64,000 nucleotides of DNA, from NCBI GenBank assembly GCA_965203445.1, contig OZ241883.1, positions 2,193,843-2,257,842 on the forward strand. The letters run 5' to 3'. Both the position numbers and the translations under genes were made by a program. Every line of letters starts with the position of its first letter. The stretch's first letter is position 1. This document shows positions 29,550-50,177 of the stretch, in pieces. This stretch comes from Candidatus Oxydemutator sp. Its GTDB lineage: Bacteria; Pseudomonadota; Gammaproteobacteria; Poriferisulfidales; Oxydemutatoraceae. The notes beneath the pieces were generated by a model. It worked only from the letters and a program-made list of their open reading frames with translations, made no database searches and was not told the DNA's origin.

Positions 29550-29883
29550 TCAATCTCGTTTGATGGTATCAAATATATTCCCCATCATATCACTTCTCAA
29601 GGCAGCAGTACGCTTGGAGCGTCGTGGCGGGAGTCTGACGAATACCTGAAGCACGCGGGCAGAGAACACTGCTGCACCTACCCGCGTCGTCCGAAGAGGA
29701 ACGCCCGAAGAGGAATACACCGGGAAAGCGCTTCAACTTCAACCCGGCAGGAGGAGTTCGCGGATTACCAGGAACATGGATTGTTTGTGGCCCCATACAT
29801 ACACTTTATTTCTGGCGGCGTGGCCATTATGATAGCAGCCCGAACGGGGTGGCGCGCCGCCACGACCCAAGCCAGAGACGACG

Positions 29884-31074: not shown

Positions 31075-31127
31075 TATAATAAAGCCTCTGACGAAGGCGC
31101 GTCGCGCGCGCACGCAGGAGAAACCCG

Positions 31128-31577: not shown

Positions 31578-31595
31578 GAAAACGCAAATCAGTCA

Positions 31596-32569: not shown

Positions 32570-32715
32570 CAGCCTTCCCGACCAAATAGATCACGATACA
32601 CCCCGCCCGCAAACAAGTCTGAAACTCTGGCAACCGGCTATAAAAATAAACTGAGCTTCATGCTGATTGACTTGTCGCCACCCTCTCCTTTACACTTTCA
32701 GTCTGCTCCTTGCGT

Positions 32716-32791
32716 TCCCCGATAGCTCAGTTGGTAGAGCGGGTGACTGTTAATCACTAGGTCGGCGGTTCGAGCCCGTCTCGGGGAGCCA
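32716..32791 (+). tRNA. tRNA-Asn (GTT)
   Basis: 76 nt. Acceptor TCCCCGA/TCGGGGA, anticodon loop CTGTTAA, T-loop GGTTCGAGCC, terminal GCCA. Confidence 0.9.
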
Positions 32792-32865
32792 GATTGGCGA
32801 AAGCGCACGCTTTGCCCTCAGGCCGATACATCGGCACCCGTGTAAGAACACGGCGACGACAAAAA

Positions 32866-33759
32866 ATGACCGACGTGAAACCACTCCCTAAGATAAAAGA
32901 ACTTCTGTTCCCGACACTGAAGGCCATCAAAAAAGAAGGTGGTTCTGCGACCAAATCAGAGTTGGAGAAAACCGTTCCCGAGATTGCCGGAATCAGCGAA
33001 GCACAACTCGAAGTAAAGTTTCCGCAAGGATCTGCACATGAGGGACGCCCCAAGATTCTTTACAAGATCGGGTGGGTCCTTACGCAACTCAAAAAGTTGG
33101 AGGCGGTAAACAACAGCGAACGCGGGGTCTGGTCGGCCACTTCCACGGGACTCGAATACCTGGCAGATGAGAATAAACTGATAAAAGACTACAAGGCATT
33201 AAAAACTAAGCGGAACAAGTTGTATAAGTTAAGAAAAAACCAGATTGGACAGACAGAAGATCAAGAAGACAACATAGAAGACGACGAGGCGGAAGATGGC
33301 TGGAAGAACAGCCTGCTGAAGACACTGAAGAACATAGCCCCGGATGCATTCGAGCGCCTCACGATGCGCATCCTCAAAGAGGCCGGGTTTCGCAACGTCG
33401 AGGTCCTGGGCAAGTCGGGCGATCAGGGCATAGATGGCGTCGGCACGTATAAGGTGTCATTGGTGAGCTTCCCGACGTACTTTCAGTGCAAGCGCTATTT
33501 CGGCAGCGTCTCCGCCGGCGCCGTCAGAGACTTTCGCGGCGCCATGGCCGGCCGAGGCGACAAAGGCATACTCATCACCACCGGGACCTTCACCTCCTCT
33601 GCAAGGTCGGAAGCAAACAAACCCGGCGCGCCACCCATAGACCTGATTGACGGCGACGAATTGTGCGATCTGCTGGTCGAATACGAAATCGGAGTTCGCG
33701 TAGAACAACGAACCGTCAAGGACATCACCGTCGACAAAGGCTTTTTCGAGAGCGTCTGA
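32866..33759 (+). CDS. mrr: Mrr-family Type IV restriction endonuclease (Mrr_N winged helix plus Mrr_cat PD-(D/E)xK)
   Basis: Catalytic core GDQGIDGVG ... QCKRY ... ILITTGTFTS. Begins 75 nt after the tRNA-Asn 3' end. Confidence 0.8.
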   Translation: MTDVKPLPKIKELLFPTLKAIKKEGGSATKSELEKTVPEIAGISEAQLEVKFPQGSAHEGRPKILYKIGWVLTQLKKLEAVNNSERGVWSATSTGLEYLADENKLIKDYKALKTKRNKLYKLRKNQIGQTEDQEDNIEDDEAEDGWKNSLLKTLKNIAPDAFERLTMRILKEAGFRNVEVLGKSGDQGIDGVGTYKVSLVSFPTYFQCKRYFGSVSAGAVRDFRGAMAGRGDKGILITTGTFTSSARSEANKPGAPPIDLIDGDELCDLLVEYEIGVRVEQRTVKDITVDKGFFESV

Positions 33760-34023
33760 AGAGCATTTGCAAAGAACAAACGGCCTTTTATTTGGCGAGT
33801 ACCCTGCAAGAAACATTCTACGGAAATAGAATAGAAATTCTCCCAATGTCAGCGGGACTAATACTAATGTAGGGGGAAGGTCAGTCAAACTGAATTGCAA
33901 TTAAGGTCCGCACGAACGGGTACTGGTGTTTTAACTGTAAATAGGCGCTGAGAAGCACTTCGCCGACTCAATAGTTGACTAGGCACTTATAGCACCGAAC
34001 ATAGCCCAAGTACAAAATCTATT

Positions 34024-34497
34024 TCAGCTCTGCTCGTTATCAACAACCAGAACAGGGTCCGACTCCGTTTCCATTTTAATTTTTGACTTCTCACGCTGTT
34101 TCGTTGCTTTTGCCACTTGCTTTATGCGCTTTTTAGCTTCGTCGCTTTCAATCAAATCGCGTTTGATAACTTCATCAGCTATCATTTCCTTGATTTCATC
34201 CGCTCCAACCTTCAAGCCCGCCTTTATTTTTCGGACTTCTCTTCGGATTATATTTATCACCGGTTCCGTCAATAAAACTGCGCCGACGGTATAACGGTTT
34301 ACTGATTGCCTATATTCATAAAACTCAGTTATTACATCTTTTGCCACACCACGTTTGCACAACAGAAAAAGCATTTGCTGATGGTCGCCATTTTTCGGAT
34401 TTAACTCAAGAAAATCAAAAGCAAGCAGCTTTTTGCTCTGTACTTTTCCATCGCAATCAACCCTATGGATTTCCCAGTTTATTCCATTCGTCAACAT
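34024..34497 (-). CDS. Hypothetical protein in an AT-rich context, possibly a remnant of a restriction-enzyme N-terminal (HsdR_N-like) domain
   Basis: 157 aa with its own GGAGG SD. The TNGINWEIH segment resembles the C-terminal motif of HSDR_N domains. K/E-rich tail. Confidence 0.35.
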   Translation of the reverse strand: MLTNGINWEIHRVDCDGKVQSKKLLAFDFLELNPKNGDHQQMLFLLCKRGVAKDVITEFYEYRQSVNRYTVGAVLLTEPVINIIRREVRKIKAGLKVGADEIKEMIADEVIKRDLIESDEAKKRIKQVAKATKQREKSKIKMETESDPVLVVDNEQS

Positions 34498-34681
34498 CGC
34501 CCATTTAATTCCTCCCTTAGGCGCTTGACAGTTGTTGCGGGGACATTAGTGTTGGCCATAGTTCCTCCAATCCATAATTTTGTTTATGCCAAAAAGCCAC
34601 TTCCCAAGAGAAGCTTTTGGCTTCCATTGAAATGAATACTCTCCTGACATCTCTTACTATGACCAGAGTCACAGTCGTCGG

Positions 34682-34935
34682 GAGAAATTCCATTCTATCA
34701 GGCTGTCGTCTCCCAAAGCGTCTGCGACGGCACGGCATACAGTCTGTCGCCGAAAGGCAGGAGCCTCTCGCCGTTATACACCAGCACCCCGCCCGCGAAA
34801 CGTTCGCCCGTTGCGTCCCTGAGTTTGCGCAGTCCGCGAAAGTCGGACTTTGTGACTGTGGCAGACGTCTTCACCTCCACCCCCGCCAAGCCGTCGCGCC
34901 GCGCTCTATCACGATGTCCACTTCCGTACCGCCCC
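34682..34935. repeat. Left copy of an approximately 254-bp direct repeat that flanks the giant-protein gene
   Basis: About 88-90% identical to 47544-47797. Contains the 3' end of a DUF4143-ATPase coding sequence. Confidence 0.8.
34698..34889 (-). pseudogene. C-terminal fragment (63 aa) of a DUF4143 AAA-ATPase, duplicate of the 3' end of the gene at 47560-48804
   Basis: GVEVKTSATVTKSDFRGLRKLRDATGERFAGGVLVYNGERLLPFGDRLYAVP here versus GVEVKASATLKKSDFRGLRKLRDATGERFAGGVLVYNGERPLPFGDRLYAVP in the full-length gene. Confidence 0.75.
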
Positions 34936-35214
34936 TGTCCCCATCCGCCATCCGGCGGCGACGGCCTTGCACCAAGCCGGCGACGGCGTCAACCAAGCCA
35001 TGGCCGGCGACGCCAACCAGGCCACAACTTCCCCCCATACCATCCCGCCCCTCTCTCTATAATGCCGCCATGCCGCTGAACAAAGCGGATACGCGGGCCA
35101 AGCTGATTGACCCCGCCCTGCACCGGAAAAGACTACGACCGGGCGATTGGACGCGAACCCGGTGATGCGGACGCCCTACTACAACCGCGGAATTGCCAAA
35201 GCCAAGCGGGGCGA

Positions 35215-38200
35215 CTAACGGACGGCGCAGGCGAGGGGCAGAGTGTTTCCGATCTTATTCAGAATGATATAACGGCGGTCCGCCGAGAGCACCTCGCCGT
35301 CAAAGTCCAAATCGGCGTCTATCGCGTAGCCGTTGCCGGAGACCGCCCGGTAGTGCCGCCTGCCTATAGTCTCAAGGTTGCTCGCCCGGATCGCGGCCTC
35401 GTCGTCGGCGTCCACGTCATTGTCACCGTCGGTATCCCCGGCAAACATCGCATAGCGACCGCCGGCCAACGGCGCCTGGCAGTTCTGGTGCGACGGCTGG
35501 AGCCGGAAGTCCACGCAATAATCGGCACCGGCGCCGGCGTCGCAGGCGACGGCCGTGGCCGTCGCCATCACCGACAAATGATTGCGGTGGTGGATCAGCA
35601 CGTACAAATCCTCGCTCGCGCTATCTATGCCTGCGCCAAAAAGCACACCCTCGGTTCGCAGCGCGTCACCATTCAGGCCGTCCACGCCGACTATCGTGCC
35701 GTCGCCCAACAACAACGCCGCCTGGCGCGCCAACGGTGTGACGGCGGCCGCGGCGCCGGCGTGTCGCGGCGTCTTTCTCAACTCCACCAGTACCCAATCC
35801 ACGACCGTGTCGGTAACGCCGGACAAGCCGAAATCACCGGCACTCATCCCCGGCACCGTTATCTGCGGCGCGTTCCACGGCGCCGTCCCGTAGGGCGAAC
35901 TCGCCGGCAGATACTCGATCAACCGGGTTCTCATGCGATCGCCGCCGGCGTACGCGCCCTGCAAATATACGTGCGCGGACACCACGGAAATCCTGTCGCG
36001 TATGCCGACCTGCGACGCCGCCGGCACTCCTATTTCCGCGAACAGGCCGCAATTCCGGCAGCCCGTCAGCCGCAAACGAAACTGCTCGCCGCTTTCACCC
36101 GGCGTATCGTCGCCAGCCACCCGCACCGATACTCTCGCGATATCGCCGACGCCCACCGTTACGCTCCCGGTAACCGGCAGCGCGACCACCCGCACACTGG
36201 TAACGCCGCCGCGATCCATTGCGGTCACGCTCTGCAAGTCGGCGGGCGTCAAACCTTCGGAGACGGCGGTAATCTCATATTCCACGGTCACGGCGCCATC
36301 GCCGGCACCGACGCCCACCAGCCTCACCATAAACGTCGCAGTAGCACCCTCGTCCACCGTAGCGGACGCCGCCGCCACCGTCACTCGGAGATCTCCATTG
36401 GCCGCTATCGTCGTTTGCACGACGGAACCTCGACCCAAACTCGCGTTGTCGGCGTTCCCGCTAAGCACCGCGTCGCCCAACGACACCTCGAAAACCTCCT
36501 CCGGTTCGGAGAAACCGTCCACGGCCACCGCCAACGAGAACGACGCGCTGCTGCGACCCGGTGCGATGACCACGTTTCCTCTGGTCGTGTCGTCAAAGTC
36601 ATCGGCACCGACCACACCGCCGTCCACCGCCCAACTCCAACTCGCGGTCACGCCCAACGGCAACGCCCGCTCCAAACTCACCACGTAGCTCGCCCTCTCC
36701 CCTTCCGACACGGCCCTGCTCCCATCTAATACAGGCGTCAGACTTATCCTCGTTTGACTCGAATACTGCGCTTGTACGGTGGCTGTGGTTCGGCCCTGGC
36801 GCAATACCGGATATTGGAACGGACTGCCAAAGTCCCACGGCGCGTCGTCGTTCAAGTCGCGGTCGCCGCCCTGATCCACGCCGTCCACGTTCAACTTGTC
36901 CCAACCAGCGTAGATGCCCATAGCCGTCGTCGGGCCGCGCAACTCGGCTGACGTCCTGGACGACCGATACGGCAGCGACGCGCCTGAACCGCAACATGAC
37001 GATAGCCCGCTGCGCTCCGTGTCGAAGTAGCTTGACTGGATCTCGCCGCCGTCGGCACGCCATCCCGCCAACCCCCCCGTCACGCCGCCGCGCGCCGAAG
37101 GCTTCCCGATAGAGTAACTCGCGCTCACGACACCAGAATCGGCCAGAGCGCTCACCAAGCCCCCGGATAGGGCTTCGTCGCTGTTGTACTTCGCGTGCGC
37201 TTCTACGTTCGCGTAGCAGGCTATCACCGCTCCTTCATTCGTACCCACCAACCCGCCCGCGCCATAACCGGTTTTCACGCTGCCACCCACCACGTAGCTC
37301 GCCGCTATCCTGCCTTTGTTGATACCCGCCAACGCGCCCGCAACCACGGAGCGATCCGTCAAGTCCACCTCCACGTCCCTGAGGCCCGTGTTGCGGATCA
37401 TCCCCCCGGCACCCAAGATGCCGAACAAGCCCACGTTATCCAATCTCGACCCCAAAACGATTCTCATGCCGCTTATCACAAAACCGTTGCCCTCGAACGT
37501 CCCCGTGTATTCGTCGCCGGCGCCGTTGCCTCTGTTGGCAACGCCACCGCCCAACGGCTGCCACTCCACACCCGACAAATCCAGGTCATTCGACAATTCG
37601 TAGCCCCTGCAATCGCCCGCACACGTCTCGGCCTCGTCGAAAAACGAAAATGCCTCCTCGTAAGCAGCCTCGCCTTCATCATCCACGCCGCGCAAACCTT
37701 CGCCGCCCAAGTCATGGCGGATCGCCGCCAACTGCGACGTCGTCGCAACGTTTATCAGATTATTGCCGTCGGCGTCGTAATTTCTCCCATTCGAGGCGAT
37801 GACGCTGACGACCGCGGAACTGGCGACACCCAAATGCACGTTGTCCGGGCCTCGCAAATCGCTTAGCCTCACTCGATACGTCTCTCTCCGCTCCAGCGTC
37901 CCGTCCTGCGCTATCCGGATACTGAAAACCGCGCTGTTGGTATTGACCAGGGTTACCGTCCCTCTCGTCGAACTGGCAAAATCGGACGCCTCGGCGTGGC
38001 CGGCGCCGGAGCCGGTCAATTCCACCGACCAACTCATCGTCACCACGACGCTGCCGCCGGCATCCAATTCCACCGCGTACCTTACCGTCGAACCTTCCGC
38101 TGCCACAGCGTCGCTTCGCTGCGACAGCGTCACCGATATCGGCGACAGCAAGCGCCGCTGCACACCGGCAGCGGTGGTGTTGCCGTCGGGATAACGCGCG

Positions 38201-41200
38201 CTCACGCCGCGCAACACCGGATACTCCAAATCGCTCCCGAAATCCCACGGGCCGTCATCGTTCAACGTCACAACGCCCATGGCCGTGCTCGCCGCGTCGT
38301 CCACGTTCAACTCGTCCCAACCGGTATAGATGCCGACCGCCGTGGTCGGAATCCTCAACTGGGCGGACGTCCTCGACGTATCCGCGTCAAACGACGGCAT
38401 GTCCTGGCCGCAGCATGAAGCCTGCCCGCTGCGCACCCTGTCAAAGTAGCTTGCCTGAACGTCATATCTGACGGCGTCGGGCTCATTACGCCCCCCCCCC
38501 AACAAGCCACCCCTTAAGATGCTTCCGCCGTATTCTCCCCCTGTCACCATACCAATGGAGTAACTGGCGCTCACCACCGAACCTATACCGGCTTCGCCTA
38601 TCAAACCACCCGATCTGTGCACAATCGCATGCACTTCCACGTCCGCGTAACTCGCTATTACCGTGCCACTATTGATACCCACCAGACCGCCCGCCGAAAA
38701 GACGCCTCCTACGCTGCCGCCTATCACCCAACTCGCCGCCACTTTGCCGTGGTTACGACCCACCAAGGCGCCCGTATAATAACTGCCGCCCCACACTCTT
38801 ACGCTCACGTCCCTAAGACCCACGTTGCGGATTGTGCCGACGTCGCTTGTGCCACCAAACAACCCCGCGTGATGCAACCGTGACGACGGCCTGTGAATAC
38901 GCAATTTGCTTATGACGTGGCCGTTGCCTTCAAAAACAGCGGTGTAATACGCTATCGGATCGCCGCCCCCTATCGGCGTCCAGTTCTCTATGCCCGACAA
39001 GTCCAGGTCGTTCAACAATTCGTAGCCCTTGCAATCGCCCGCACACGTCGCGACCTCGTCGAAAAACGGAAACGCCTCTTCGTAAGCAGCCCTGTCTTCA
39101 TCATCCACGCCGCGCAAACCTTCGCCGCCCAAGTCATGGCGGATCGCCGCCAACTGCGACGTCGTCGAAACGTCTATCAGATTATTGCCGTCGGCGTCGT
39201 AATTTCTCCCATCCGGGGCGATGACGCTGACGACCGCGGAACTGGCGACACCCAAATGCACGTTGTCCGGGCCTCGCAAATCGCTTAACCTCACTCGATA
39301 CGTCTCTCTCCGATCCGGCGTCCCGTCCTGCGCTATCCGTATACTGAAAACCGCGCTGTCGGTATTGACCAGGGCCACCGTCCCTCTCGTCGAATCGGCA
39401 AAATCGGACGCCTCGGCGTGGCCGGCGCCGGAACCGGTCAATTCCACCGACCAACTCATCGTCACCACGACGCTGCCGACGGCATCCAATTCCACCACGT
39501 ACCTTACCGTCGAACCTTCCGCTACCACAGCGTCGCTTCGCTGCGACAGCGTCACCGATACCGGCGGCAGCAAGCGCCGCTGCACGCCGGCAGCGGTGGT
39601 GTTGCCACCGGGATAACGCGCGCTCACGCCACGCAACGCCGGATACTCCAAATCGCTCCCGAAATCCCACGGGCTGTCATCGTTCAACGTCACAACGCCC
39701 ATGGCCGTGCTCGCCGCGTCGTCCACGTTCAACTTGTCCCAACCGCTATAGATGCCGACCGCCGTGGTCGGAGCCCTCAACTGGGCGGACGTCCTCGACG
39801 TATCCGCGTCATACGACGGCACGTTCTGGCCGCAGCACGAAGTCTGCCCGCTGCGCACCCTGTCAAAGTAGCTTGCCTGAACGTCATATTTGTCGGCGTC
39901 GGTTTCATTACGCCCCCCCAACAAGCCGCCCCGTAAGGTGCTTCCATCGTATGTCCCCCCTGTCACCATACCAATGGAGTAACTGGCGCTCACCACCGAA
40001 CCTATACCGGCTTCGCCTATCAGACCACCCGATCCGTGTTCATCCGCATGCACTTCCACGTCCGCGTAACTCGCTATTACCGTGCCATAATTGGCACCCG
40101 CCAAACCGCCCGCCGACCAGACACCTTCTACGCTGCCGCCTACCACGTAACTCGCCGCCACTTTGCCGTGGTTACGGCCCACCAAGGCGCCCGTATAAAA
40201 ACTGCCGCCCCCCACTCTTACGTTCACGTCCCTAAGACCCACGTTGCGGATTGTGCCGACGTCGCTTGTGCCACCAAACAACCCCGCGTGATGCAACCGT
40301 GACGACGGCCTGTGAATACGCAATTTGCTTATGACGTGACCGTTGCCTTCAAAAACAGCGGTGTAATACGCTATCGGATCGCCCCCCCCTATCGGCGTCC
40401 AGTTCTCTATGCCCGACAAATCTACGTCGTTCAACAATTCGTAGCCCTTGCAACCGCCCGCACACGTCGCGACCTCGTCGAAAAACGGAAACGCCTCTTC
40501 GTAAGCAGCCCTGTCTTCATCATCCACGCCACGCAAACCTTCGCCGCCCAAGTCATGGCGGATCGCCGCCAACTGCGACGTCGTCGAAACGTCTATCAGA
40601 TTATTGCCGTCGGCGTCGTAATTTCTCCCATCCGGGGCGATGACGCTGACGACCGCGGAACTGGCGACATCCAAACGCACGTTGTCCGGACCTCGCAAAT
40701 CGCTTAGCCTCACTCGATACGTCTCTCTCCGATCCGGCGTCCCGTCCCGCGCTATCCGTATACTGAAAACCGCGCTGTCGGTATTGACCAGGGCCACCGT
40801 CCCTCTCGTCGAATCGGCAAAATCGGACGCCTCGGCGTGGCCGACGCCGGAACCGGTCAATTCCACCGACCAACTCATCGTCACCACGGCGCTGACGCCG
40901 GCATCCCATTCCACCGCGTACCTTACCGTCGAACCTTCCGCTACCACAGCGTCGCCTCGCTGCGACAACGCCACCAATACCGGCGACTGCAAGCGCCACT
41001 GCACGCCGGTAGCGGTGGTGTTGCCGTGGGGATAGCGCGCGCTCACGCCACGCAACACCGGATATTGGAACGGACTGCCAAAATCCCACGGGCTGTCATC
41101 GTTCAACGTCACAACGCCCATAGCCGTGCTCGCCACGCCGTCCACGTTCAACTTGTCCCAACCATCGTAGATGCCCGTCGCCGTGGTCGGCTCGCGCAAC

Positions 41201-44200
41201 TTCCCCACACTCCTGGCCGGCGACCCCGGCACACCCACGCCACCCCCGCCCCAACCGCCGACGTCGCCGGCATAGTAACTGCTCTGGATCACGTCATGTC
41301 TATGTCTATCACCGCTTCCCTCGTTGAAACCTACCACACCGCCAACTCTCGTTGCAGCCGGACTGTAGGGCAGCCGCTTCAACCGGGAGCGCGCATAACT
41401 CGCTATGATCCTGCCGCCACGGTTCCAACCCACCAGACCACCAGCCCGATCTCTTCGCACTGCCACGGTCACGTCGGCGTAAGAAGCGACGATCTCCTCT
41501 CTATTCTCATTCCTCTCATTCCTGCCCGTCAGACCGCCTACACCATAAAAGCCCCTCACCATACCGCCCACCACGTAGCTCGCCGCCACCTGGCCGAAGT
41601 TGGCACCCACCAGCGCACCCACCCAGAAGCTGATCGACTCGGCCACGTCGACGTTCACGTTCACCAGACCCACGTTGCGGACGACACCGTCGGAACCCAG
41701 AACACCGAACAAACCCACGGAATTCAAGTTCCTGACCGTACTCGACAAATGCAAACGTTCGATGACGTGGCCGTTACCCTCAAAGACCGCGTTGTAGCGA
41801 TTCCCGGGCGGATTGGCAAACGGGCCGAGTACGCGCCCGCCCCCTATCGGCGTCCAGTTGACGCCGGACAGGTCTATGTCGTTCAACAGTTCATAACCTT
41901 TGCAAGTGCCGGGACAACCCATGCCCTGCACGGCGTCGGGAAACGCAGCGCCATAGGCGGCGGCGGCGGCGTTGCCGGCGCCCGCCAGATCGTGGGCGAT
42001 GGCCTGCAACTGCGTCGAGGTCTCGACGTCTATCAAATTGTTGTCATTCACGTCATAGTCGACGCCCCCAGGATGCACTTCCGCGGTGGCTGTGGTTCGG
42101 CCCTGGCGCAATACCGGATATTGGAACGGACTGCCAAAGTCCCACGGCGCGTCGTCGTTCAAGTCGCGGTCGCCGCCCTGATCCACGCCGTCCACGTTCA
42201 ACTTGTCCCAACCAGCGTAGATGCCCATAGCTGTCGTCGGGCCGCGCAACTCGGCCGACGTCCTGGACGACCGATACGGCAGCGACGCGCCTGAACCGCA
42301 ACATGACGATAGCCCGCTGCGCTCCGTGTCGAAGTAGCTTGACTGGATCTCGCCGCCGTCGGCACGCCATCCCGCCAACCCCCCCGTCACGCCGCCGCGC
42401 GCCGAAGGCTTCCCGATAGAGTAACTCGCGCTCACGACACCAGAATCGGCCAGAGCGCTCACCAAGCCCCCGGATAGGGCTTCGTCGCTGTTGTACTTCG
42501 CGTGCGCTTCTACGTTCGCGTAGCAGGCTATCACCGCTCCTTCATTCGTACCCACCAACCCGCCCGCGCCATAACCGGTTTTCACGCTGCCACCCACCAC
42601 GTAGCTCGCCGCTATCCTGCCTTTGTTGATACCCGCCAACGCGCCCGCAACCACGGAGCGATCCGTCAAGTCCACCTCCACGTCCCTGAGGCCCGTGTTG
42701 CGGATCATCCCCCCGGCACCCAAGATGCCGAACAAGCCCACGTTATCCAATCTCGACCCCAAAACGATTCTCATGCCGCTTATCACAAAACCGTTGCCCT
42801 CGAACGTCCCCGTGTATTCGTCGCCGGCGCCGTTGCCTCTGTTGGCAACGCCACCGCCCAACGGCTGCCACTCCACACCCGACAAATCCAGGTCATTCGA
42901 CAATTCGTAGCCCCTGCAATCGCCCGCACACGTCTCGGCCTCGTCGAAAAACGAAAATGCCTCCTCGTAAGCAGCCTCGCCTTCATCATCCACGCCGCGC
43001 AAACCTTCGCCGCCCAAGTCATGGCGGATCGCCGCCAACTGCGACGTCGTCGCAACGTTTATCAGATTATTGCCGTCGGCGTCGTAATTTCTCCCATTCG
43101 AGGCGATGACGCTGACGACCGCGGAACTGGCGACACCCAAATGCACGTTGTCCGGGCCTCGCAAATCGCTTAGCCTCACTCGATACGTCTCTCTCCGCTC
43201 CGGCGTCCCGTCCTGCGCTATCCGTATACTGAAAACCGCGCTGTTGGTATTGACCAGGGCTACCGTCCCTCTCGTCGAACTGGCAAAATCGGACGCCTCG
43301 GCGTGGCCGGCGCCGGAGCCGGTCAATTCCACCGACCAACTCATCGTCACCACGACGCTGCCGCCGGCATCCAATTCCACCGCGTACCTTACCGTCGAAC
43401 CTTCCGCTGCCACAGCGTCGCTTCGCTGCGACAGCGTCACCGATATCGGCGACAGCAAGCGCCGCTGCACACCGGCAGCGGTGGTGTTGCCGTCGGGATA
43501 ACGCGCACTCACGCCGCGCAACACCGGATACTCCAAATCGCTCCCGAAATCCCACGGGCCGTCATCGTTCAACGTCACAACGCCCATGGCCGTGCTCGCC
43601 GCGTCGTCCACGTTCAACTTGTCCCAACCGGTATAGATGCCGACCGCCGTGGTCGGAATCCTCAACTGGGCGGACGTCCTCGACGTATCCGCGTCATACG
43701 ACGGCATGTCCTGGCCGCAGCATGAAGCCTGCCCGCTGCGCACCCTGTCAAAGTAGCTTGCCTGAACGTCATATCTGACGGCGTCGGGTTCATTACGCCC
43801 CCCCCCCAACAAGCCACCCCTTAAGATGCTTCCGCCGTATTCTCCCCCTGTCACCATACCAATGGAGTAACTGGCGCTCACCACCGAACCTATACCGGCT
43901 TCGCCTATCAAACCACCCGATCTGTGCACAATCGCATGCACTTCCACGTCCGCGTAACTCGCTATTACCGTGCCACTATTGATACCCACCAGACCGCCCG
44001 CCGACCAGACCCCTCCTACGCTGCCGCCTATCACCCAACTCGCCGCCACTTTGCCGTGGTTACGACCCACCAAGGCGCCCGTATAAATACTGCTGCCCCA
44101 CACTCTTACGCTCACGTCCCTTAGGCCCACGTTGCGGATTGTGCCGACGTCGCTTGTGCCACCAAACAACCCCGCGTGATGCAACCGTGACGACGGCCTG

Positions 44201-47200
44201 TGAATACGCAATTTGCTTATGACGTGGCCGTTGCCTTCAAAAACAGCGGTGTAATACACTATCGGATCGCTGCCCCCTATCGGCGTCCAGTTCTCTATGC
44301 CCGACAAGTCCAGGTCGTTTAACAATTCGTAGCCCTTGCAATCGCCCGCACAAGTCGCAACCTCGTCGAAAAACGGAAATGCCTCGTCGTAAGCAGCCTT
44401 GTCTTCATCATCCACGCCGCGCAAACCTTCGCCGCCCAAGTCATGGCGGATCGCCGCCAACTGCGACGTCGTCGTAACGTCTATCAGATTATTGCCGTCG
44501 GCGTCGTAATTTCTCCCATTCGGGGCGATGACGCTGACGACCGCGGAACTGGCGACACCCAAATGCACGTTGTCCGGACCTCGCAAATCGCTTAACCTCA
44601 CTCGATACGTCTCTCTCCGATCCGGCGTCCCGTCCTGCGCTATCCGTATCCTGAAAACCGCCCTGTCGGTATTGACCAGGGCCACCGTGCCTCTCGTCGA
44701 ATCGGCAAAATCGGACGCCTCGGCGTGGCCGGCGCCGGAACCGGTCAATTCCACCGACCAACTCATCGTCACCACGACGCTGCCGACGGCATCCAATTCC
44801 ACCACGTACCTTACCGTCGAACCTTCCGCTACCACAGCGTCGCTTCGCTGCGACAGCGTCACCGATACCGGCGGCAGCAAGCGCCGCTGCACGCCGGCAG
44901 CGGTGGTGTTGCCACCGGGATAACGCGCGCTCACGCCGCGCAACGCCGGATACTCCAAATCGCTCCCGAAATCCCACGGGCTGTCATCGTTCAACGTCAC
45001 AACGCCCATGGCCGTGCTCGCCACGCCGTCCACGTTCAACTTGTCCCAACCGGTATAGATGCCGACCGCCGTGGTCGGAGCCCTCAACTGGGCGGACGTC
45101 CTCGACGTATCCGCGTCATACGACGGCACGTTCTGGCCGCAGCACGAAGACTGCCCGCTGCGCACCCTGTCAAAGTAGCTTGCCTGAACGTCATATTTGT
45201 CGGCGTCGGGTTCATTACGCCCCCCCAACAAACCACCCCGTAAGGTGCTTCCACCGTATGTCCCCCCTGTCACCATACCAATGGAGTAACTGGCGCTCAC
45301 CACCGAACCTATACCGGCTTCGCCTATCAGACCACCCGATCGGTGCTCATCCGCATGCACTTCCACGTCCGCGTAACTCGCTATTACCGTGCCATAATTG
45401 GCACCCGCCAAACCGCCCGCCGCCCAAACACCTTCTACGCTGCCGCCTACCACGTAACTCGCCGCCACTTTGCCGTCGTTACGGCCCACCAAGGCGCCCG
45501 TATAAATACTGCTGTCTCCCACGTGTACGTTCACGTCCCTAAGGCCCACGTTGCGGATTGTGCCGACGCTGCTTGTGCCACCAAACAACCCCGCGTGATG
45601 CAACCGTGACGACGGCCTGTGAATACGCAATTTGCTTATGACGTGGCCGTTGCCTTCAAAAACAGCAGAGTAATGCTCTATCGGATCGCCGCCCCCTATC
45701 GGCGCCCAATTCTCTATGCCCGATAAATCCAGGTCGTTTAACAATTCGTAGCCCTTGCAGCCGCCCGCACACGTCGCGACCTCGTCGAAAAACGGAAATG
45801 CCTCTTCGTAAGCAGCCCCGTCTCCATCATCCACGCCGCGCAAACCTTCGCCGCCCAAGTCATGGCGGATCGCCGCCAACTGCGACGTCGTCGTAACGTC
45901 TATCAGATTATTGCCGTCGGCGTCGTAATTTCTCCCATCCGGGGCGATGACGCTGACGACCGCGGAACTGGCGACACCCAAATACACGTTGTCCGGACCT
46001 CGCAAATCGCTTAGCCTCACTCGATACGTCTCTCTCCGATCCGGCGTCCCGTCCTGCGCTATCCGTATCCTGAAAACCGCGCTGTCGGTATTGACCAAAA
46101 CCACCGTCCCTCTCGTCGAATCGGCAAAATCGGACGCCTCGGCGTGGCCGGCGCCGGAACCGGTCAATTCCACCGACCAACTCATCGTCACCACGGCGCT
46201 GACGCCGGCATCCCATTCCACCGCGTACCTTACCGTCGAGCCTTCCGCTACCACAGCGTCGCCTCGCTGCGACAACGCCACCAATACCGGCGACTGCAAG
46301 CGCCACTGCACGCCGGTAGCGGTGGTGTTGCCGTGGGGATAGCGCGCGCTCACGCCACGCAACACCGGATATTGGAACGGACTGCCAAAATCCCACGGGC
46401 TGTCATCGTTCAACGTCACAACGCCCATAGCCGTGCTCGCCACGCCGTCCACGTTCAACTTGTCCCAACCATCGTAGATGCCCGTCGCCGTGGTCGGCTC
46501 GCGCAACTTCCCCACACTCCTGGCCGGCGACCCCGGCACACCCACGCCACCCCCGCCCCAACCGCCGACGTCGCCGGCATAGTAACTGCTCTGGATCACG
46601 TCAAATCTATGTCTATCACCGCTTCCCTCGTTCAAACCCACCACACCGCCAACTCCCGTTGCAGCCGGACTGTAGGGCAGCCGCTTCAACCGGGAGCGCG
46701 CATAACTCGCTATGATCCTGCCGCCACGGTTCCAACCCACCAGACCACCAGCCCGATCTCTTCGCACTGCCACGGTCACGTCGGCGTAAGAAGCGACGAT
46801 CTCCTCTCTATTCTCATTCCTCTCATTCCTGCCCGTCAGACCGCCTACACCATAATGGCCCCTCACCATACCGCCCACCACGTAGCTCGCCGCCACCTGG
46901 CCGAAGTTGGCACCCACCAGCGCACCCACCCAGAAGCTGATCGACTCGGCCACGTCGACGTTCACGTTCACCAGACCCACGTTGCGGACGACACCGTCGG
47001 AACCCAGAACACCGAACAAACCCACGGAATTCAAGTTCCTGACCGTACTCGACAAATGCAAACGTTCGATGACGTGGCCGTTACCCTCAAAGACCGCGTT
47101 GTAGCGATTCCCGGGCGGATTGGCAAACGGGCCGAGTACGCGCCCGCCCCCTATCGGCGTCCAGTTGACGCCGGACAGGTCTATGTCGTTCAACAGTTCA

Positions 47201-47451
47201 TAACCTTTGCAAGTGCCGGGACAACCCATGCCCTGCACGGCATCGGGAAACGCAGCGCCATAGGCGGCGGCGGCGGCGTTGCCGGCGCCCGCCAGATCGT
47301 GGGCGATGGCCTGCAACTGCGTCGAGGTCTCGACGTCTATCAAATTGTTGTCATTCACGTCATAGTCGACGCCCCCGGGAGGGGTTTGGGCCGCGGCGCC
47401 GACGGTAAAAACCATCAGCGCCAGACACGCAGCAATTCTCATTGCCCACAC
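35215..47451 (-). CDS. Giant secreted modular surface protein of 4078 aa. It has a signal peptide, eight GLUG-motif/Calx-beta-like modules and a C-terminal dockerin-like Ca-binding segment
   Basis: N-terminal signal peptide MWAMRIAACLALMVFTVGAAAQ. Repeated GGLxGxNxG/ASY (GLUG-type) segments. Calx-beta-like blocks (TMSWSVELTGSGAGHAEASDF...VxLVNTDSAVFxIRIAQDGTPDRRETYRVRLSDL). C-terminal DTDGDNDVDADD...DLDFDGEV. Confidence 0.8.
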   Translation of the reverse strand: MWAMRIAACLALMVFTVGAAAQTPPGGVDYDVNDNNLIDVETSTQLQAIAHDLAGAGNAAAAAYGAAFPDAVQGMGCPGTCKGYELLNDIDLSGVNWTPIGGGRVLGPFANPPGNRYNAVFEGNGHVIERLHLSSTVRNLNSVGLFGVLGSDGVVRNVGLVNVNVDVAESISFWVGALVGANFGQVAASYVVGGMVRGHYGVGGLTGRNERNENREEIVASYADVTVAVRRDRAGGLVGWNRGGRIIASYARSRLKRLPYSPAATGVGGVVGLNEGSGDRHRFDVIQSSYYAGDVGGWGGGGVGVPGSPARSVGKLREPTTATGIYDGWDKLNVDGVASTAMGVVTLNDDSPWDFGSPFQYPVLRGVSARYPHGNTTATGVQWRLQSPVLVALSQRGDAVVAEGSTVRYAVEWDAGVSAVVTMSWSVELTGSGAGHAEASDFADSTRGTVVLVNTDSAVFRIRIAQDGTPDRRETYRVRLSDLRGPDNVYLGVASSAVVSVIAPDGRNYDADGNNLIDVTTTSQLAAIRHDLGGEGLRGVDDGDGAAYEEAFPFFDEVATCAGGCKGYELLNDLDLSGIENWAPIGGGDPIEHYSAVFEGNGHVISKLRIHRPSSRLHHAGLFGGTSSVGTIRNVGLRDVNVHVGDSSIYTGALVGRNDGKVAASYVVGGSVEGVWAAGGLAGANYGTVIASYADVEVHADEHRSGGLIGEAGIGSVVSASYSIGMVTGGTYGGSTLRGGLLGGRNEPDADKYDVQASYFDRVRSGQSSCCGQNVPSYDADTSRTSAQLRAPTTAVGIYTGWDKLNVDGVASTAMGVVTLNDDSPWDFGSDLEYPALRGVSARYPGGNTTAAGVQRRLLPPVSVTLSQRSDAVVAEGSTVRYVVELDAVGSVVVTMSWSVELTGSGAGHAEASDFADSTRGTVALVNTDRAVFRIRIAQDGTPDRRETYRVRLSDLRGPDNVHLGVASSAVVSVIAPNGRNYDADGNNLIDVTTTSQLAAIRHDLGGEGLRGVDDEDKAAYDEAFPFFDEVATCAGDCKGYELLNDLDLSGIENWTPIGGSDPIVYYTAVFEGNGHVISKLRIHRPSSRLHHAGLFGGTSDVGTIRNVGLRDVSVRVWGSSIYTGALVGRNHGKVAASWVIGGSVGGVWSAGGLVGINSGTVIASYADVEVHAIVHRSGGLIGEAGIGSVVSASYSIGMVTGGEYGGSILRGGLLGGGRNEPDAVRYDVQASYFDRVRSGQASCCGQDMPSYDADTSRTSAQLRIPTTAVGIYTGWDKLNVDDAASTAMGVVTLNDDGPWDFGSDLEYPVLRGVSARYPDGNTTAAGVQRRLLSPISVTLSQRSDAVAAEGSTVRYAVELDAGGSVVVTMSWSVELTGSGAGHAEASDFASSTRGTVALVNTNSAVFSIRIAQDGTPERRETYRVRLSDLRGPDNVHLGVASSAVVSVIASNGRNYDADGNNLINVATTSQLAAIRHDLGGEGLRGVDDEGEAAYEEAFSFFDEAETCAGDCRGYELSNDLDLSGVEWQPLGGGVANRGNGAGDEYTGTFEGNGFVISGMRIVLGSRLDNVGLFGILGAGGMIRNTGLRDVEVDLTDRSVVAGALAGINKGRIAASYVVGGSVKTGYGAGGLVGTNEGAVIACYANVEAHAKYNSDEALSGGLVSALADSGVVSASYSIGKPSARGGVTGGLAGWRADGGEIQSSYFDTERSGLSSCCGSGASLPYRSSRTSAELRGPTTAMGIYAGWDKLNVDGVDQGGDRDLNDDAPWDFGSPFQYPVLRQGRTTATAEVHPGGVDYDVNDNNLIDVETSTQLQAIAHDLAGAGNAAAAAYGAAFPDAVQGMGCPGTCKGYELLNDIDLSGVNWTPIGGGRVLGPFANPPGNRYNAVFEGNGHVIERLHLSSTVRNLNSVGLFGVLGSDGVVRNVGLVNVNVDVAESISFWVGALVGANFGQVAASYVVGGMVRGFYGVGGLTGRNERNENREEIVASYADVTVAVRRDRAGGLVGWNRGGRIIASYARSRLKRLPYSPAATRVGGVVGFNEGSGDRHRHDVIQSSYYAGDVGGWGGGGVGVPGSPARSVGKLREPTTATGIYDGWDKLNVDGVASTAMGVVTLNDDSPWDFGSPFQYPVLRGVSARYPHGNTTATGVQWRLQSPVLVALSQRGDAVVAEGSTVRYAVEWDAGVSAVVTMSWSVELTGSGVGHAEASDFADSTRGTVALVNTDSAVFSIRIARDGTPDRRETYRVRLSDLRGPDNVRLDVASSAVVSVIAPDGRNYDADGNNLIDVSTTSQLAAIRHDLGGEGLRGVDDEDRAAYEEAFPFFDEVATCAGGCKGYELLNDVDLSGIENWTPIGGGDPIAYYTAVFEGNGHVISKLRIHRPSSRLHHAGLFGGTSDVGTIRNVGLRDVNVRVGGGSFYTGALVGRNHGKVAASYVVGGSVEGVWSAGGLAGANYGTVIASYADVEVHADEHGSGGLIGEAGIGSVVSASYSIGMVTGGTYDGSTLRGGLLGGRNETDADKYDVQASYFDRVRSGQTSCCGQNVPSYDADTSRTSAQLRAPTTAVGIYSGWDKLNVDDAASTAMGVVTLNDDSPWDFGSDLEYPALRGVSARYPGGNTTAAGVQRRLLPPVSVTLSQRSDAVVAEGSTVRYVVELDAVGSVVVTMSWSVELTGSGAGHAEASDFADSTRGTVALVNTDSAVFSIRIAQDGTPDRRETYRVRLSDLRGPDNVHLGVASSAVVSVIAPDGRNYDADGNNLIDVSTTSQLAAIRHDLGGEGLRGVDDEDRAAYEEAFPFFDEVATCAGDCKGYELLNDLDLSGIENWTPIGGGDPIAYYTAVFEGNGHVISKLRIHRPSSRLHHAGLFGGTSDVGTIRNVGLRDVSVRVWGGSYYTGALVGRNHGKVAASWVIGGSVGGVFSAGGLVGINSGTVIASYADVEVHAIVHRSGGLIGEAGIGSVVSASYSIGMVTGGEYGGSILRGGLLGGGRNEPDAVRYDVQASYFDRVRSGQASCCGQDMPSFDADTSRTSAQLRIPTTAVGIYTGWDELNVDDAASTAMGVVTLNDDGPWDFGSDLEYPVLRGVSARYPDGNTTAAGVQRRLLSPISVTLSQRSDAVAAEGSTVRYAVELDAGGSVVVTMSWSVELTGSGAGHAEASDFASSTRGTVTLVNTNSAVFSIRIAQDGTLERRETYRVRLSDLRGPDNVHLGVASSAVVSVIASNGRNYDADGNNLINVATTSQLAAIRHDLGGEGLRGVDDEGEAAYEEAFSFFDEAETCAGDCRGYELSNDLDLSGVEWQPLGGGVANRGNGAGDEYTGTFEGNGFVISGMRIVLGSRLDNVGLFGILGAGGMIRNTGLRDVEVDLTDRSVVAGALAGINKGRIAASYVVGGSVKTGYGAGGLVGTNEGAVIACYANVEAHAKYNSDEALSGGLVSALADSGVVSASYSIGKPSARGGVTGGLAGWRADGGEIQSSYFDTERSGLSSCCGSGASLPYRSSRTSAELRGPTTAMGIYAGWDKLNVDGVDQGGDRDLNDDAPWDFGSPFQYPVLRQGRTTATVQAQYSSQTRISLTPVLDGSRAVSEGERASYVVSLERALPLGVTASWSWAVDGGVVGADDFDDTTRGNVVIAPGRSSASFSLAVAVDGFSEPEEVFEVSLGDAVLSGNADNASLGRGSVVQTTIAANGDLRVTVAAASATVDEGATATFMVRLVGVGAGDGAVTVEYEITAVSEGLTPADLQSVTAMDRGGVTSVRVVALPVTGSVTVGVGDIARVSVRVAGDDTPGESGEQFRLRLTGCRNCGLFAEIGVPAASQVGIRDRISVVSAHVYLQGAYAGGDRMRTRLIEYLPASSPYGTAPWNAPQITVPGMSAGDFGLSGVTDTVVDWVLVELRKTPRHAGAAAAVTPLARQAALLLGDGTIVGVDGLNGDALRTEGVLFGAGIDSASEDLYVLIHHRNHLSVMATATAVACDAGAGADYCVDFRLQPSHQNCQAPLAGGRYAMFAGDTDGDNDVDADDEAAIRASNLETIGRRHYRAVSGNGYAIDADLDFDGEVLSADRRYIILNKIGNTLPLACAVR
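36772..47385. repeat. Near-identical tandem duplication with a 5307-bp period (two copies, about 36772-42078 and 42079-47385) inside the giant gene. Each copy is built from four sub-modules of about 1.42 kb
   Basis: Antisense ORF pairs are offset by exactly 5307 nt (37195/42502, 37760/43067, 39182/44489, 40601/45908, 40837/46144). They are identical or differ at about 1% of residues. Internal offsets of 1419-1422 nt, for example 38893/40312. Confidence 0.85.
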
Positions 47452-47543
47452 CTTGGCTATGCGGAATTAGAGAGGGAGGGTGTAATCATCAGGATATTGT
47501 ACAACAGTCGACCTTCCTCCTGAATCAGGGCCGCAGTCATTGA

Positions 47544-47797
47544 GAGAAATCCCATTGTATCAGGCTGTTGCCCCCCAAAGCATCTGCAACGGCACGGCAT
47601 ACAGTCTGTCGCCGAAAGGCAGGGGTCTCTCGCCATTATAAACCAGTACCCCGCCGGCAAAGCGTTCGCCCGTTGCGTCCCTGAGTTTGCGCAGTCCGCG
47701 AAAGTCGGACTTTTTGAGCGTGGCGGACGCCTTCACTTCCACCCCCGTCAAAGCCATCGCGTCGCGCTCTATCACGATGTCCACTTCCGCGCCGCCC
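47544..47797. repeat. Right copy of the approximately 254-bp direct repeat (inside the 3' end of the intact DUF4143 ATPase gene)
   Basis: See 34682-34935. Confidence 0.8.
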
Positions 47798-48804
47798 TTG
47801 TCTCGATAGTGGTAGAAGGTATGCGGTTCCTGATGTCCGCTTGCCTGCCGCCTCAATTCCTGCAAGACAAACGATTCCAGCATGTGACCGAACAGGGGGC
47901 CGTTGTACGCAAGTGCCGCGCCGTTCAATTTCATCAAAGCGCAGGCAATTCCGGTATCGCTGACGTGCAGTTTGGGGGTCTTTATCAAGGATTGCAGGCG
48001 ATTGCTGTGCCACGCCGGCAATTTTTCCAGCAAAAACATTTTTTCCAACAGGAAAAGATAGTCTCGGACGGCGGTGCGGCTGAGTGCAAACGACGTCGCC
48101 AAGCCGTTCACGCTCAAGAGCCGGGCGGTCTGCGCCGCGGCCATCAACAGCAACCGGGACAGATTTTCAGGCGAGCGGATTGCGGCCACGTCCGGCACGT
48201 CGTGTTGGACGAGAGCCCTGATGTATCCGTTGTACCACGCCGTGCGCCTTCTGCCGGAACGTTGCAGTGCCGCCGGGTAGCCGCCGGCCACAACGCGATC
48301 CGCGATTTGCTCCCGCGCGGGCCTGCCTCGTCGCGCCTGAAAGGTCGTGGCAAACAGGGAGTCAAGAAACGTGGGCGCGGTCTGGGCAAGTTCGCATTGT
48401 GAGAAAGGATGCAGGTCTATGATTTCCATGCGGCCCGCAAGCGAATCGGCAATTTGGCGCACCTGCAACACGTTCACCGAACCAGTCAGCAGAAAGCGCC
48501 CCGGCGTGCGGTTGCGGTCAACCATCAGTTTGATGGATGAGAATAACCAGGGAACCCGCTGCGCCTCGTCCAATATGACGCGCTCGGACAAGTTATTGGC
48601 AAAGCCGACGGGATCTTCTTCGACGGACTTGCGCACGTCGTCGTCGTCGAAACTGATGTACTCGTAACCCGCGGTTCGCCCAACCATCTGGGCAAGCGTC
48701 GTTTTGCCGCACTGACGCGCCCCTTGAATCAGCACGACGGGAGAATCCGCCAGCGCTTCTTTCAGACGCGGTTCGACGTGGCGTGTGTAGTCGGTTTCGA
48801 TCAC
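47560..48804 (-). CDS. AAA+ ATPase with a C-terminal DUF4143 domain (COG1373 family)
   Basis: Walker A GARQCGKTT near the N-terminus and a Walker B-like ILDEAQ. 414 aa. The C-terminal DUF4143-type region is duplicated at 34698-34889. Confidence 0.8.
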   Translation of the reverse strand: MIETDYTRHVEPRLKEALADSPVVLIQGARQCGKTTLAQMVGRTAGYEYISFDDDDVRKSVEEDPVGFANNLSERVILDEAQRVPWLFSSIKLMVDRNRTPGRFLLTGSVNVLQVRQIADSLAGRMEIIDLHPFSQCELAQTAPTFLDSLFATTFQARRGRPAREQIADRVVAGGYPAALQRSGRRRTAWYNGYIRALVQHDVPDVAAIRSPENLSRLLLMAAAQTARLLSVNGLATSFALSRTAVRDYLFLLEKMFLLEKLPAWHSNRLQSLIKTPKLHVSDTGIACALMKLNGAALAYNGPLFGHMLESFVLQELRRQASGHQEPHTFYHYRDKGGAEVDIVIERDAMALTGVEVKASATLKKSDFRGLRKLRDATGERFAGGVLVYNGERPLPFGDRLYAVPLQMLWGATA

Positions 48805-48810
48805 AGTGTT

Positions 48811-48962
48811 CTAATTGTATATCTATAAGCCTTCTAATTGCACATTTATATGTGTATTTTTCTGGTATTTACAAGGGGAACAAACCATATATTATTGATA
48901 TAAAAATATATTTTATGTCTATTATAATTGCACATTTATGGGTATTCTAATTGCACATTTGA
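48811..48962. promoter_or_regulatory. AT-rich promoter/operator region with three or four direct copies of (C)TAATTGCACATTT(A/G)
   Basis: Exact copies at 48834-48848, 48925-48940 and 48947-48962. A degenerate copy CTAATTGTATATCTA at 48811-48825. Copies are paired at spacings of 22-23 bp. Lies upstream of the ATPase gene start at 48804. Confidence 0.45.
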
Positions 48963-48975
48963 CGGGGATATATTG

Positions 48976-50136
48976 TCATTTTTCCCTCATCCCCGCACCT
49001 TCTATCACCTCCCTGACCGCCTCCAGTTCCGCGGCTACCGTGCGTATTTTTCCCTGCGCCTGGCGCATCGCGACGTCCGGGTCTTTCAGGCCGTGGCCGG
49101 TCAGCGTGCATACAATGCGGCTGCCGGCCTCGATTTTGCCCGCCTCGACGTCCTTCAGCAATCCGGCGATAGAGATCGCCGACGCCGGTTCGCAGAATAT
49201 GCCCTCGCGTTCGGCCAGCATTCGTTGCGCCGCCAGGATCTCCTCGTCGGTGCGGCAATCGAACCACCCGCCAGATTCCTGCCCGGCGATCAGCGCCATG
49301 TCCCAGCTTTGCGGATTGCCGATGCGGATGGCGGTCGCTATCGTATCCGGGTTCTCGACTTTCCTGCCCGACACAATCGGCGCGGCGCCCACGGCCTGGT
49401 AGCCCAACATGCGCGGACGGCGGTTCGCCCGGGCGCCGTCGTAGCCGCGCCACGCCGCGCCCAAGGCTTGCCTGGCCTTGTCCACGCAACCGCTCGGCAG
49501 GCGCGCGGCTTCGGAATAGCCCATCCAGTAGGCGGAGATATTGCCGGCGTTGCCGACCGGCAGGCAGTGGTAGTCGGGTGCGTCGCCCAACGCCTCGACG
49601 ATCTCGAAGGCGGCGGTCTTCTGGCCCTGCAAGCGGTACGGGTTGACCGAGTTCACGAGCGTCACCGGCATCTCGGCGGACAGCGTCTTGACCAGTTCCA
49701 TGCCCTGATCGAAGTTGCCCCGGATCTGGACGACGGCGGCGCCCTCGATGATCGCCTGCGCGAGTTTGCCCATCGCGATCTTGCCGTCCGGTATCAGCAC
49801 GAACACGGCGAGGCCGGCGCGCGCCCCGTAGGCCGCGGCCGAGGCCGACGTGTTTCCGGTCGAGGCGCAGATCAACGCGCGGCTGCCCTCGGCGACGGCC
49901 TGGGTCACGGCCACCGTCATGCCGCGATCCTTGAACGAACCGGTCGGGTTCAGGCCCTCATATTTGACGTGGATTTCCAGCGGCACGCCCAAAGCCGCGG
50001 GGATATTGCGAAGGCGGATCAGCGGCGTCGCGCCCTCGCACAGGGACACCGGCGCGGCGTCGTCCGGCAGCGGCAAGCAATGCCGATAGGCGGAGATCAG
50101 GCCGTCGCGTGAACACGTGGTTTCGCCGGGAATCAT
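48976..50136 (-). CDS. thrC: Threonine synthase (short, Bacillus-type)
   Basis: PLP lysine motif [11 protein letters not shown]. About 386 aa from MIPGE. The upstream track start at 50181 is less likely. Confidence 0.85.
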
Positions 50137-50177
50137 TTGTAGAAAACAATCAGGGGAGGAAAAACCATCACCCCAGA

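Follow-up and report, generated by a model that had tools for sequence, protein, structure and literature searches.

A diverged direct repeat of an ATPase gene 3' end around a giant gene beside tRNA-Asn: a probable old scar of DNA addition

We studied a 64,000-nt stretch of the genome of Candidatus Oxydemutator sp. (contig OZ241883.1; hereafter the window), in which a giant gene of about 12.2 kb is bracketed by two direct copies of the 3' end of a gene for a DUF4143 ATPase. On balance, we favour the reading of this repeat as an old scar of homology-anchored DNA addition in a hypervariable island, which reaches from thrC and the ATPase gene to a tRNA-Asn gene. The right copy is the 3' end of an intact ATPase gene, and the left copy is a frameshifted, decaying pseudogene fragment. 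The same site in related genomes was found to be empty or to hold other cargo, and the inserted DNA is devoid of recombinase genes.

The repeat pair and the same site in related genomes

The BLASTN comparison of the two flanks of the giant gene has shown direct repeats at 34672-34939 and 47534-47802, on the same strand, with 88.5% identity over 269 columns and 1 gap (E = 5.6e-92). The initial annotation had put the identity at 88-90%, which holds for this core, and a MAFFT alignment of its exact intervals (34682-34935 and 47544-47797) concurred. An independent repeat scan recovered the same ATPase-tail repeat as families D19 and D20, namely 34664-34889/47526-47751 (88%) and 34880-34944/47743-47807 (85%). 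In a global alignment the homology was traceable over 34656-34944 and 47518-47807, where 250 of the 291 columns were identical and 3 were gap columns. The longest identical blocks between the copies were 51, 35, and 27 nt. No third ATPase copy was found by BLASTN in the window. The features of the repeat and of the DNA between its copies are as follows.

47560..48804, minus strand: intact gene of the 414-aa AAA_14 + DUF4143 ATPase (COG1373-type), from Pfam and PADLOC PDC-S01
47518..47807, minus strand: right repeat copy (R), ATPase codons ~345-414 and ~40-60 nt past the stop
47452..47517, minus strand: leader between the right repeat and the giant open reading frame (ORF)
35215..47451, minus strand: giant ORF, 4078 aa from GTG, with a likely ATG start at 47442; secreted repeat protein
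34945..35214, no strand: non-coding stretch of 270 nt from the giant-gene stop to the left repeat
34656..34944, minus strand: left repeat copy (Left), ATPase pseudogene fragment, codons ~345-414 and ~40 nt

The right copy lies inside an intact ATPase gene, as the initial annotation had said, and it extends past the stop. The N-terminal AAA_14 P-loop domain matched PF13173 (E = 3.4e-26, profile positions 2-128 of 129), with the Walker A motif GARQCGKTT present in the translation, and the C-terminal DUF4143 domain matched PF13635 (E = 2.5e-43, profile positions 2-160 of 160). The PADLOC PDC-S01 profile PDLC04790 was matched by residues 3-411 (E = 8.9e-161). By these matches the protein is a regular member of the AAA_14 + DUF4143 family, and PDC-S01 is a candidate defence family only. 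The DUF4143/COG1373 proteins were counted among the PD-(D/E)XK families in a superfamily survey (PMC3424549); the C-terminal E-VD...E-V-K motif falls within the duplicated part of the right copy. The closest homologue in the protein search was P0001, with 86% aa identity. The right-copy gene showed a uniform identity to its counterpart in the relative L001, 83-95% per 100 nt along the gene, so the gene is intact and in register.

The left copy has lost one nucleotide, which causes a frameshift. It had been described as an isolated 63-codon C-terminal fragment. The fragment is real; the 63 codons (ORF 34698-34889) are only the part past the frameshift, and the homologous stretch is ~70 codons long, with 82% aa identity to the right copy.

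Three long ENA contigs, L001, L046, and L047, represent the close relatives. They were found only through the protein search and the 90% cluster of P0001, which has two further members. In the backbone they share 98.6-99.4% identity among themselves and ~88.5% with the window. All three contain hom-thrC followed by one intact ATPase gene, in the same place after thrC as in the window, and they align to window positions 48950-47505 and to thrC and beyond. By this conserved placement the ATPase gene is a resident border gene rather than cargo. The giant gene was absent from L001, L046, and L047, and no second ATPase fragment was found in any of them. The content of the spacer between the ATPase gene and tRNA-Asn, followed by that of the neighbouring intervals, is given below for each genome.

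L046: nothing in the spacer (~115 nt from the ATPase stop); tRNA and an aminotransferase gene separated by two small ORFs, as in the window
L047: nothing in the spacer (~115 nt); TerB-DnaJ beyond the tRNA; an NfeD / SDH-protease pair between thrC and the ATPase gene
L001: 9.1 kb in the spacer, with p268 (a gene for 268 aa), a DUF4011 helicase, Type_ISP_C, and TPR; an NfeD / SDH-protease pair between thrC and the ATPase gene
Window: giant gene, ATPase tail fragment, p268 remnant, and Mrr in the spacer; tRNA and aminotransferase gene separated by two small ORFs

L046 and L047 thus present a true empty site, with one ATPase gene and no giant gene. L001, with a single ATPase gene and no giant gene, contains the ATPase 3' end and early cargo (11001-12163) collinear with window positions 34941-34052, at 82-92% identity. 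This is the state that the initial annotation had predicted for genomes lacking the insert. Since the left copy is collinear with the L001 ATPase 3' end and its downstream flank, it reads as the displaced original 3' end of the resident ATPase gene. The comparison with the three relatives shows that the upstream orthologous flank was kept by the right copy and the downstream orthologous flank by the left copy. The DNA downstream of the right copy matches L046 and L047 until about position 47505. The homology of the right copy to L001 is lost ~20-60 nt past the stop, and the leader of the giant gene follows. A cargo junction at exactly 30 nt past the stop was dropped; the five-way alignment shows weak homology to about 55-70 nt past the stop, and the boundary is approximate. 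The extra DNA between the orthologous flanks amounts to ~12.9 kb, and consists of one repeat copy, the leader, the giant gene, and the 270-nt stretch.

The giant-gene segment had been proposed to be inserted into, or duplicated together with, an ancestral ATPase gene. An insertion or duplication at this gene is borne out, and the gene itself was not disrupted; only its 3' end was displaced. The insertion hot spot is instead the ~115-nt spacer between the ATPase gene and tRNA-Asn, whose contents vary from genome to genome and which is a general site for cargo. All of the cargo lies in this one spacer, because in L046 and L047 the ATPase stop is ~115 nt away from tRNA-Asn. Both repeat copies without the giant gene, an arrangement that would speak against the proposed insertion, occurred in none of the three relatives.

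Age of the copies and origin of the repeat

The p-distances, taken over 277 aligned sites, were 13.0% between R and Left, 14.4% between R and L001, and 16.6% between Left and L001, with inferred branch lengths of 0.054 for R, 0.076 for Left, and 0.090 for L001. The insertion or duplication event is old, because the divergence between the copies, 13-15%, is similar to that of either copy from the sister clade. The unique coding changes fell at codon positions 1-2 in 6 of 13 cases in Left and in 6 of 19 cases on the L001 branch; the proportion in Left suggests relaxed constraint, as fits a pseudogene.

The differences are not spread alike along the repeat. In the first 90 nt, R showed 5-7 differences to the relatives vs 13 to Left. 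In the central 52 nt, R and Left showed 1 difference, and both differed from the relatives at 10 sites. The remainder of the repeat was star-like. The central part contains the identical run of 51 nt (~34745-34795/47607-47657), in which the sister clade differs at 9-10 sites. This run is longer than shuffled differences predict (permutation p = 0.006), which suggests one past gene-conversion-like exchange between the copies. The sites of shared derived state, polarised with outgroups of 68% identity, gave a weak signal: 4 sites group R with Left, about 1 groups Left with L001, and 1-2 group R with L001.

From the flanks and the relatives we infer the source of the added DNA, the sequence of events, and the way of joining as follows. 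The ancestor would have resembled L001, with one ATPase gene and, after it, the p268 cargo. The incoming fragment would have brought an ATPase 3' end, ~40-60 nt of the DNA downstream of it, the giant gene, and a trailing ~270 nt. Its donor was probably a related bacterium in which the ATPase gene was closely followed by the giant gene. Pairing with the resident ATPase gene would have relied on the shared ATPase sequence. The fragment may then have been fixed by homology-facilitated illegitimate recombination (HFIR), in which its non-homologous end is joined illegitimately, or it may have closed into a circle and crossed over once within the ~290-bp homology. Both routes would leave an intact ATPase gene, the giant gene, and then the old 3' end from codon ~345. 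Afterwards, the displaced tail would have been frameshifted and the neighbouring p268 gene internally deleted.

Several points weigh against this course. The donor order, with the giant gene directly after the ATPase gene, was not found in the genome, metagenome, and protein collections, and the giant-gene homologues are at most 69% identical and lie in unrelated contexts. The star-like and mosaic site pattern fits a foreign replacement 3' end and an in-situ duplication nearly as old as the species split alike, and the shared derived sites, which weakly favour R and Left as sisters, are slightly more in keeping with the in-situ duplication. The 270-nt stretch and the possible 5' remnant of an HsdR gene in it show that more than one step was involved. 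The polarity, gain here vs loss there, rests on parsimony, because the close relatives form a single clade.

A duplicative insertion in situ, in which two initially identical copies would have diverged afterwards, is a possible but clearly less probable origin. In the course of replication or break repair, the nascent strand would have copied the ATPase gene to ~50 nt past the stop, switched to a giant-gene locus elsewhere in this genome, and returned to codon ~345; alternatively, a tandem duplication would have been remodelled later. Such an origin is favoured by the shared derived sites and by the central 52-nt tract. In addition, the 3' end of R is as L001-like as the rest of the gene, so that nothing marks R as foreign, and paralogues of the giant-gene family are numerous in related assemblies. 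However, the first 90 nt of R, which are far closer to the relatives than to Left, misfit simple sister copies, and the 13% divergence demands an event that nearly dates back to the parting of this lineage from the L001 clade. Neither the window nor the fetched loci contain a second copy of the giant gene, of its leader, or of the 270-nt stretch.

Two full ATPase genes may also have flanked the giant gene, of which the downstream one lost its 5' 80%, and the relatives would then have lost the giant gene by recombination. Recombination between two such copies would give exactly the single-gene state of L001, and the family is known to form copies and fragments elsewhere. In L005 (4749-12022) two full ATPase homologues and a DUF4143 fragment were found in tandem, and in L015 (4770-10744) an ATPase homologue is split by an insert of ~4.7 kb with SocA/Panacea, an IS1595 transposase, and an ankyrin protein; both loci lie 62 kb apart on one chromosome, in the Thermodesulfobacteriota metagenome-assembled genome (MAG) OZ252213.1. 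The ATPase family is thus multi-copy and fragment-prone. We still consider a decayed paralogue rather unlikely in the window. It needs an independent, precise loss in the relatives, which are single-copy in 3 of 3 cases, and the cargo-free state of L046 and L047 needs further deletions; no trace of ATPase sequence upstream of codon ~345 was found in 34945-35214. The L015 and L005 loci were also considered as cases of the window's topology around a large element and rejected, L015 being a split ATPase gene of which both halves lie at the one locus.

The repeat does not belong to an active mobile element, and it is neither a pair of att sites nor a transposon. No inverted repeats of at least 40 nt were found in 32000-50500, no transposase domain was found in the ORFs tested by profile search, and the window contains no second copy of the tRNA-Asn 3' end. 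The flanking duplication, of ~290 nt and diverged, is unlike a target-site duplication. No recombinase route fits, because integrase and transposase genes, inverted repeats, and a tRNA 3'-end copy are lacking and because the relatives gain cargo without duplication of the ATPase end. The topology, with an intact gene, an insert, and a displaced 3' fragment in direct orientation, is as left by islands or prophages that integrate site-specifically into a gene's 3' end and carry a replacement 3' end, and the giant gene would then be cargo of a degraded element. This origin is highly improbable and is already largely refuted. Beyond the giant ORF, 34945-47517 contains no integrase, excisionase, or other gene, and an att-like tRNA repeat is lacking. 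The identical blocks are placed centrally in the repeat and do not form a core at a defined crossover point, and the spacer takes unrelated cargo in the relatives without ATPase duplication.

The giant gene and its neighbourhood

The giant ORF fills the insert, occupying 35215-47451 of 34945-47517, and no Pfam hits were obtained for the alternative-frame ORFs within it. The protein contains a signal peptide after the likely ATG at 47442. Among the Pfam domains, GLUG scored 21.7 bits, just above its cut-off of 20.5, and Calx-beta scored 25.8 bits, just below its cut-off of 27; the C-terminus was read as dockerin-like. The name adhesin, given in the initial annotation, is not established by these features. 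Searches with the N-terminal and C-terminal parts found homologues of paralogue level only, with 40-69% identity, and no adjacent DUF4143 ATPase was present in the five contexts checked. The gene contains 8 units of ~1.42 kb and a tandem duplication of 5,307 nt (36767-42073 vs 42074-47380) with 98.2% identity, which is a recent expansion or possibly an assembly-sensitive region.

No homology to the relatives was found in the leader beyond about 47505-47490, and no consensus promoters or terminators were found above shuffled expectation at the two junctions, the 108-nt spacer between the ATPase gene and the giant gene also being free of a recognised promoter. The 34945-35214 stretch gave no DNA matches in the fetched loci. 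It contains a 31-codon ORF, MPLNKADTRAKLIDPALHRKRLRPGDWTRTR, at 35070-35165 (plus strand), with TATAAT ahead of it. Tentatively, this ORF resembles the N-terminus of HsdR-type restriction subunits, and it is possibly what remains of the 5' end of a lost gene. Pfam and NCBIfam gave no match for it even at E <= 10, and no other copy was found in the window or the fetched loci.

The repeats had been proposed as a substrate for recombinational excision or amplification of the whole giant gene. RecA-dependent exchange usually needs ~25-30 nt of identity, and homologous recombination declines log-linearly with sequence divergence. The repeats are in direct orientation, excision would restore an intact ATPase gene, the identical blocks of 51, 35, and 27 nt exceed this usual requirement, and the 51-nt run suggests at least one past exchange. 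A present-day switch is nevertheless very unlikely. The divergence of 13-15% should strongly depress homologous recombination, and the insert persisted while the copies diverged this far. The excised form of the window's lineage was not found, and both the left copy and p268 show decay instead of maintenance. The proposal thus gained no direct support, its sole trace being the one possible short conversion tract, and the capacity for looping-out of the giant gene through the repeats is at present low but not zero. The internal 5.3-kb duplication and the eight 1.42-kb units are far stronger recombination substrates than the ATPase repeats, and length variants of the giant protein are therefore to be expected far sooner than deletion of the entire gene.

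A wider role for the ATPase 3' end, which encodes the nuclease-like module, as a recurrent anchor for capturing and stacking large cargo by tRNA-Asn in symbiont genomes is a reading to which we give little credence. If it were true, the repeats would still allow occasional RecA-dependent loss or gain of the giant gene and on/off variation in the population, and such exchange would have left the 51-nt conversion-like tract.

The other features of the island are as follows.

34024..34655, minus strand: p268 gene remnant, from comparison with the L001 orthologue
32875..33759, plus strand: Mrr-type (type IV) restriction endonuclease gene, from Pfam Mrr_cat and Mrr_N and from PADLOC mREase_IV / PDC-S02
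32716..32791, plus strand: tRNA-Asn(GTT), convergent with the ATPase gene and the other border of the variable region

In L001 (11382-12188) the p268 gene encodes 268 aa with a weak match to HSDR_N_2 (PD-(D/E)xK). In the window its ATG at 34559 was kept, and an out-of-frame internal deletion of ~276 nt, which takes out the nuclease core, leads to a stop after 22 codons; the 157-aa ORF at 34024-34497 is the tail of this pseudogene. The left fragment, rather than standing isolated, belongs to a decaying older cargo allele, made up of the frameshifted ATPase tail and the internally deleted p268. For annotation, the 63-codon and 157-aa ORFs are pseudogene remnants and the ATPase gene is intact. 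The ORF of the Mrr gene as listed begins with TTG at 32794, right at the edge of the tRNA gene, and the true start is therefore probably near 32875.

The GC content was 0.40-0.63 over about 29000-48900 vs 0.65-0.71 in the backbone on either side. The gene order surE-pcm-nlpD, hflX-hflK, and hom-thrC was found in the window, with a GC content of ~0.67, which would suit a proteobacterium; the origins of the homologues would suit a community associated with invertebrates or sponges. The far side of tRNA-Asn is variable as well. The window (31071-32664) and L046 (11490-13070) contain two small ORFs of 183 and 141 aa before the aminotransferase gene, one of which gave a weak, just sub-threshold BamE-like match; L047 (11497-13670) contains a zinc-ribbon protein and TerB-DnaJ, and L001 contains nothing. 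On the other side, a two-gene insert of 1.9 kb, with the NfeD / SDH-protease family gene and a 59-aa ORF, lies between thrC and the ATPase gene in L001 and L047 (7990-9855) and is missing in the window (48950-49011) and in L046.

Beyond its own clade, the nearest homologues of the ATPase (68-69% aa identity) were found in MAGs of Candidatus Dadabacteria and Thermodesulfobacteriota, not in organisms with a similar backbone, which hints that the ATPase moved horizontally among members of one community. The search of species-level genomes and JGI metagenomes with the ATPase gave nothing above 68-69% identity, and look-ups of the exact ATPase protein (V or M start) and of the 157-aa ORF returned no entry.

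Comparison with known systems

The HFIR route and circularisation with a single crossover are documented routes by which non-homologous DNA is added beside a homologous anchor (PMC3240628). HFIR has been proposed for the displaced downstream 3' gene remnants and orphan modules in type VI secretion system (T6SS) and Rhs loci (PMC5361080, which cites de Vries & Wackernagel 2002, Prudhomme et al. 2002, and Meier & Wackernagel 2003 as sources on HFIR). Two features expected of such a scar were found in the window: an intact anchor gene whose upstream flank is orthologous to L001, L046, and L047, and a start-less 3' fragment whose downstream flank is orthologous to L001, a relative free of the insert. 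The donor arrangement, against which microhomology at the putative illegitimate junction (34944/34945) would be read, was not found in the collections searched. A single crossover predicts direct repeats of a homologous segment around non-homologous DNA, and HFIR predicts an anchor with an illegitimate junction; the anatomy of the locus fits both predictions. The laboratory events of both kinds were obtained with small constructs, whereas the event proposed here would be ancient and 12.6 kb in size.

A close likeness in form is to the effector-immunity arrays of the Vibrio cholerae T6SS and to the displacement of Rhs and contact-dependent inhibition (CDI) C-termini (PMC5361080), which share with the window the conserved upstream anchor and the in-register addition. 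In both, the full-length gene remains, the old 3' end lies start-less downstream in direct orientation, and no recombinase gene is present. Unlike in those loci, the two 3' ends in the window are near-equivalent (82% aa identity) and are not polymorphic toxin tips, and no immunity gene is present. Here the added DNA is one 12.2-kb gene functionally unrelated to the anchor, and a single displacement was found instead of an array.

The island also resembles the hot spots of defence and genomic islands adjacent to tRNA genes, having variable cargo by tRNA-Asn and a GC content below that of the backbone. Beside the tRNA lie the Mrr type IV restriction endonuclease and the PDC-S01 ATPase in the window and the DUF4011 helicase and Type_ISP_C in L001. 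Unlike in such islands, the window contains no integrase and no direct repeat of a tRNA 3' end, and the ATPase gene stands as a border gene rather than as cargo. Of the marks of an insertion sequence or composite transposon, namely a transposase, terminal inverted repeats, and a short target-site duplication, none was found.

In E. coli, e14 and phage 21 integrate in the 3' end of icd and bring a replacement 3' end; they encode an integrase and recombine at a defined core. The window shares with them the intact target, the replaced 3' end, and the diverged, displaced 3' fragment at the far end of the insert. It differs in that no recombinase gene or core was found, the neighbours being Mrr and pseudogene remnants, and in that the same junctions do not recur in other genomes, since the relatives hold their cargo without a 3' duplication of the ATPase gene.

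The window thus adds a new instance to an already known class of scars; the class of mechanism is known as well, and no new question is opened by it. The comparators show that a 12-kb gene for a giant secreted protein can enter without mobile-element machinery, the entry being dated here as old, and the locus offers a natural example of 3'-end displacement outside toxin loci.

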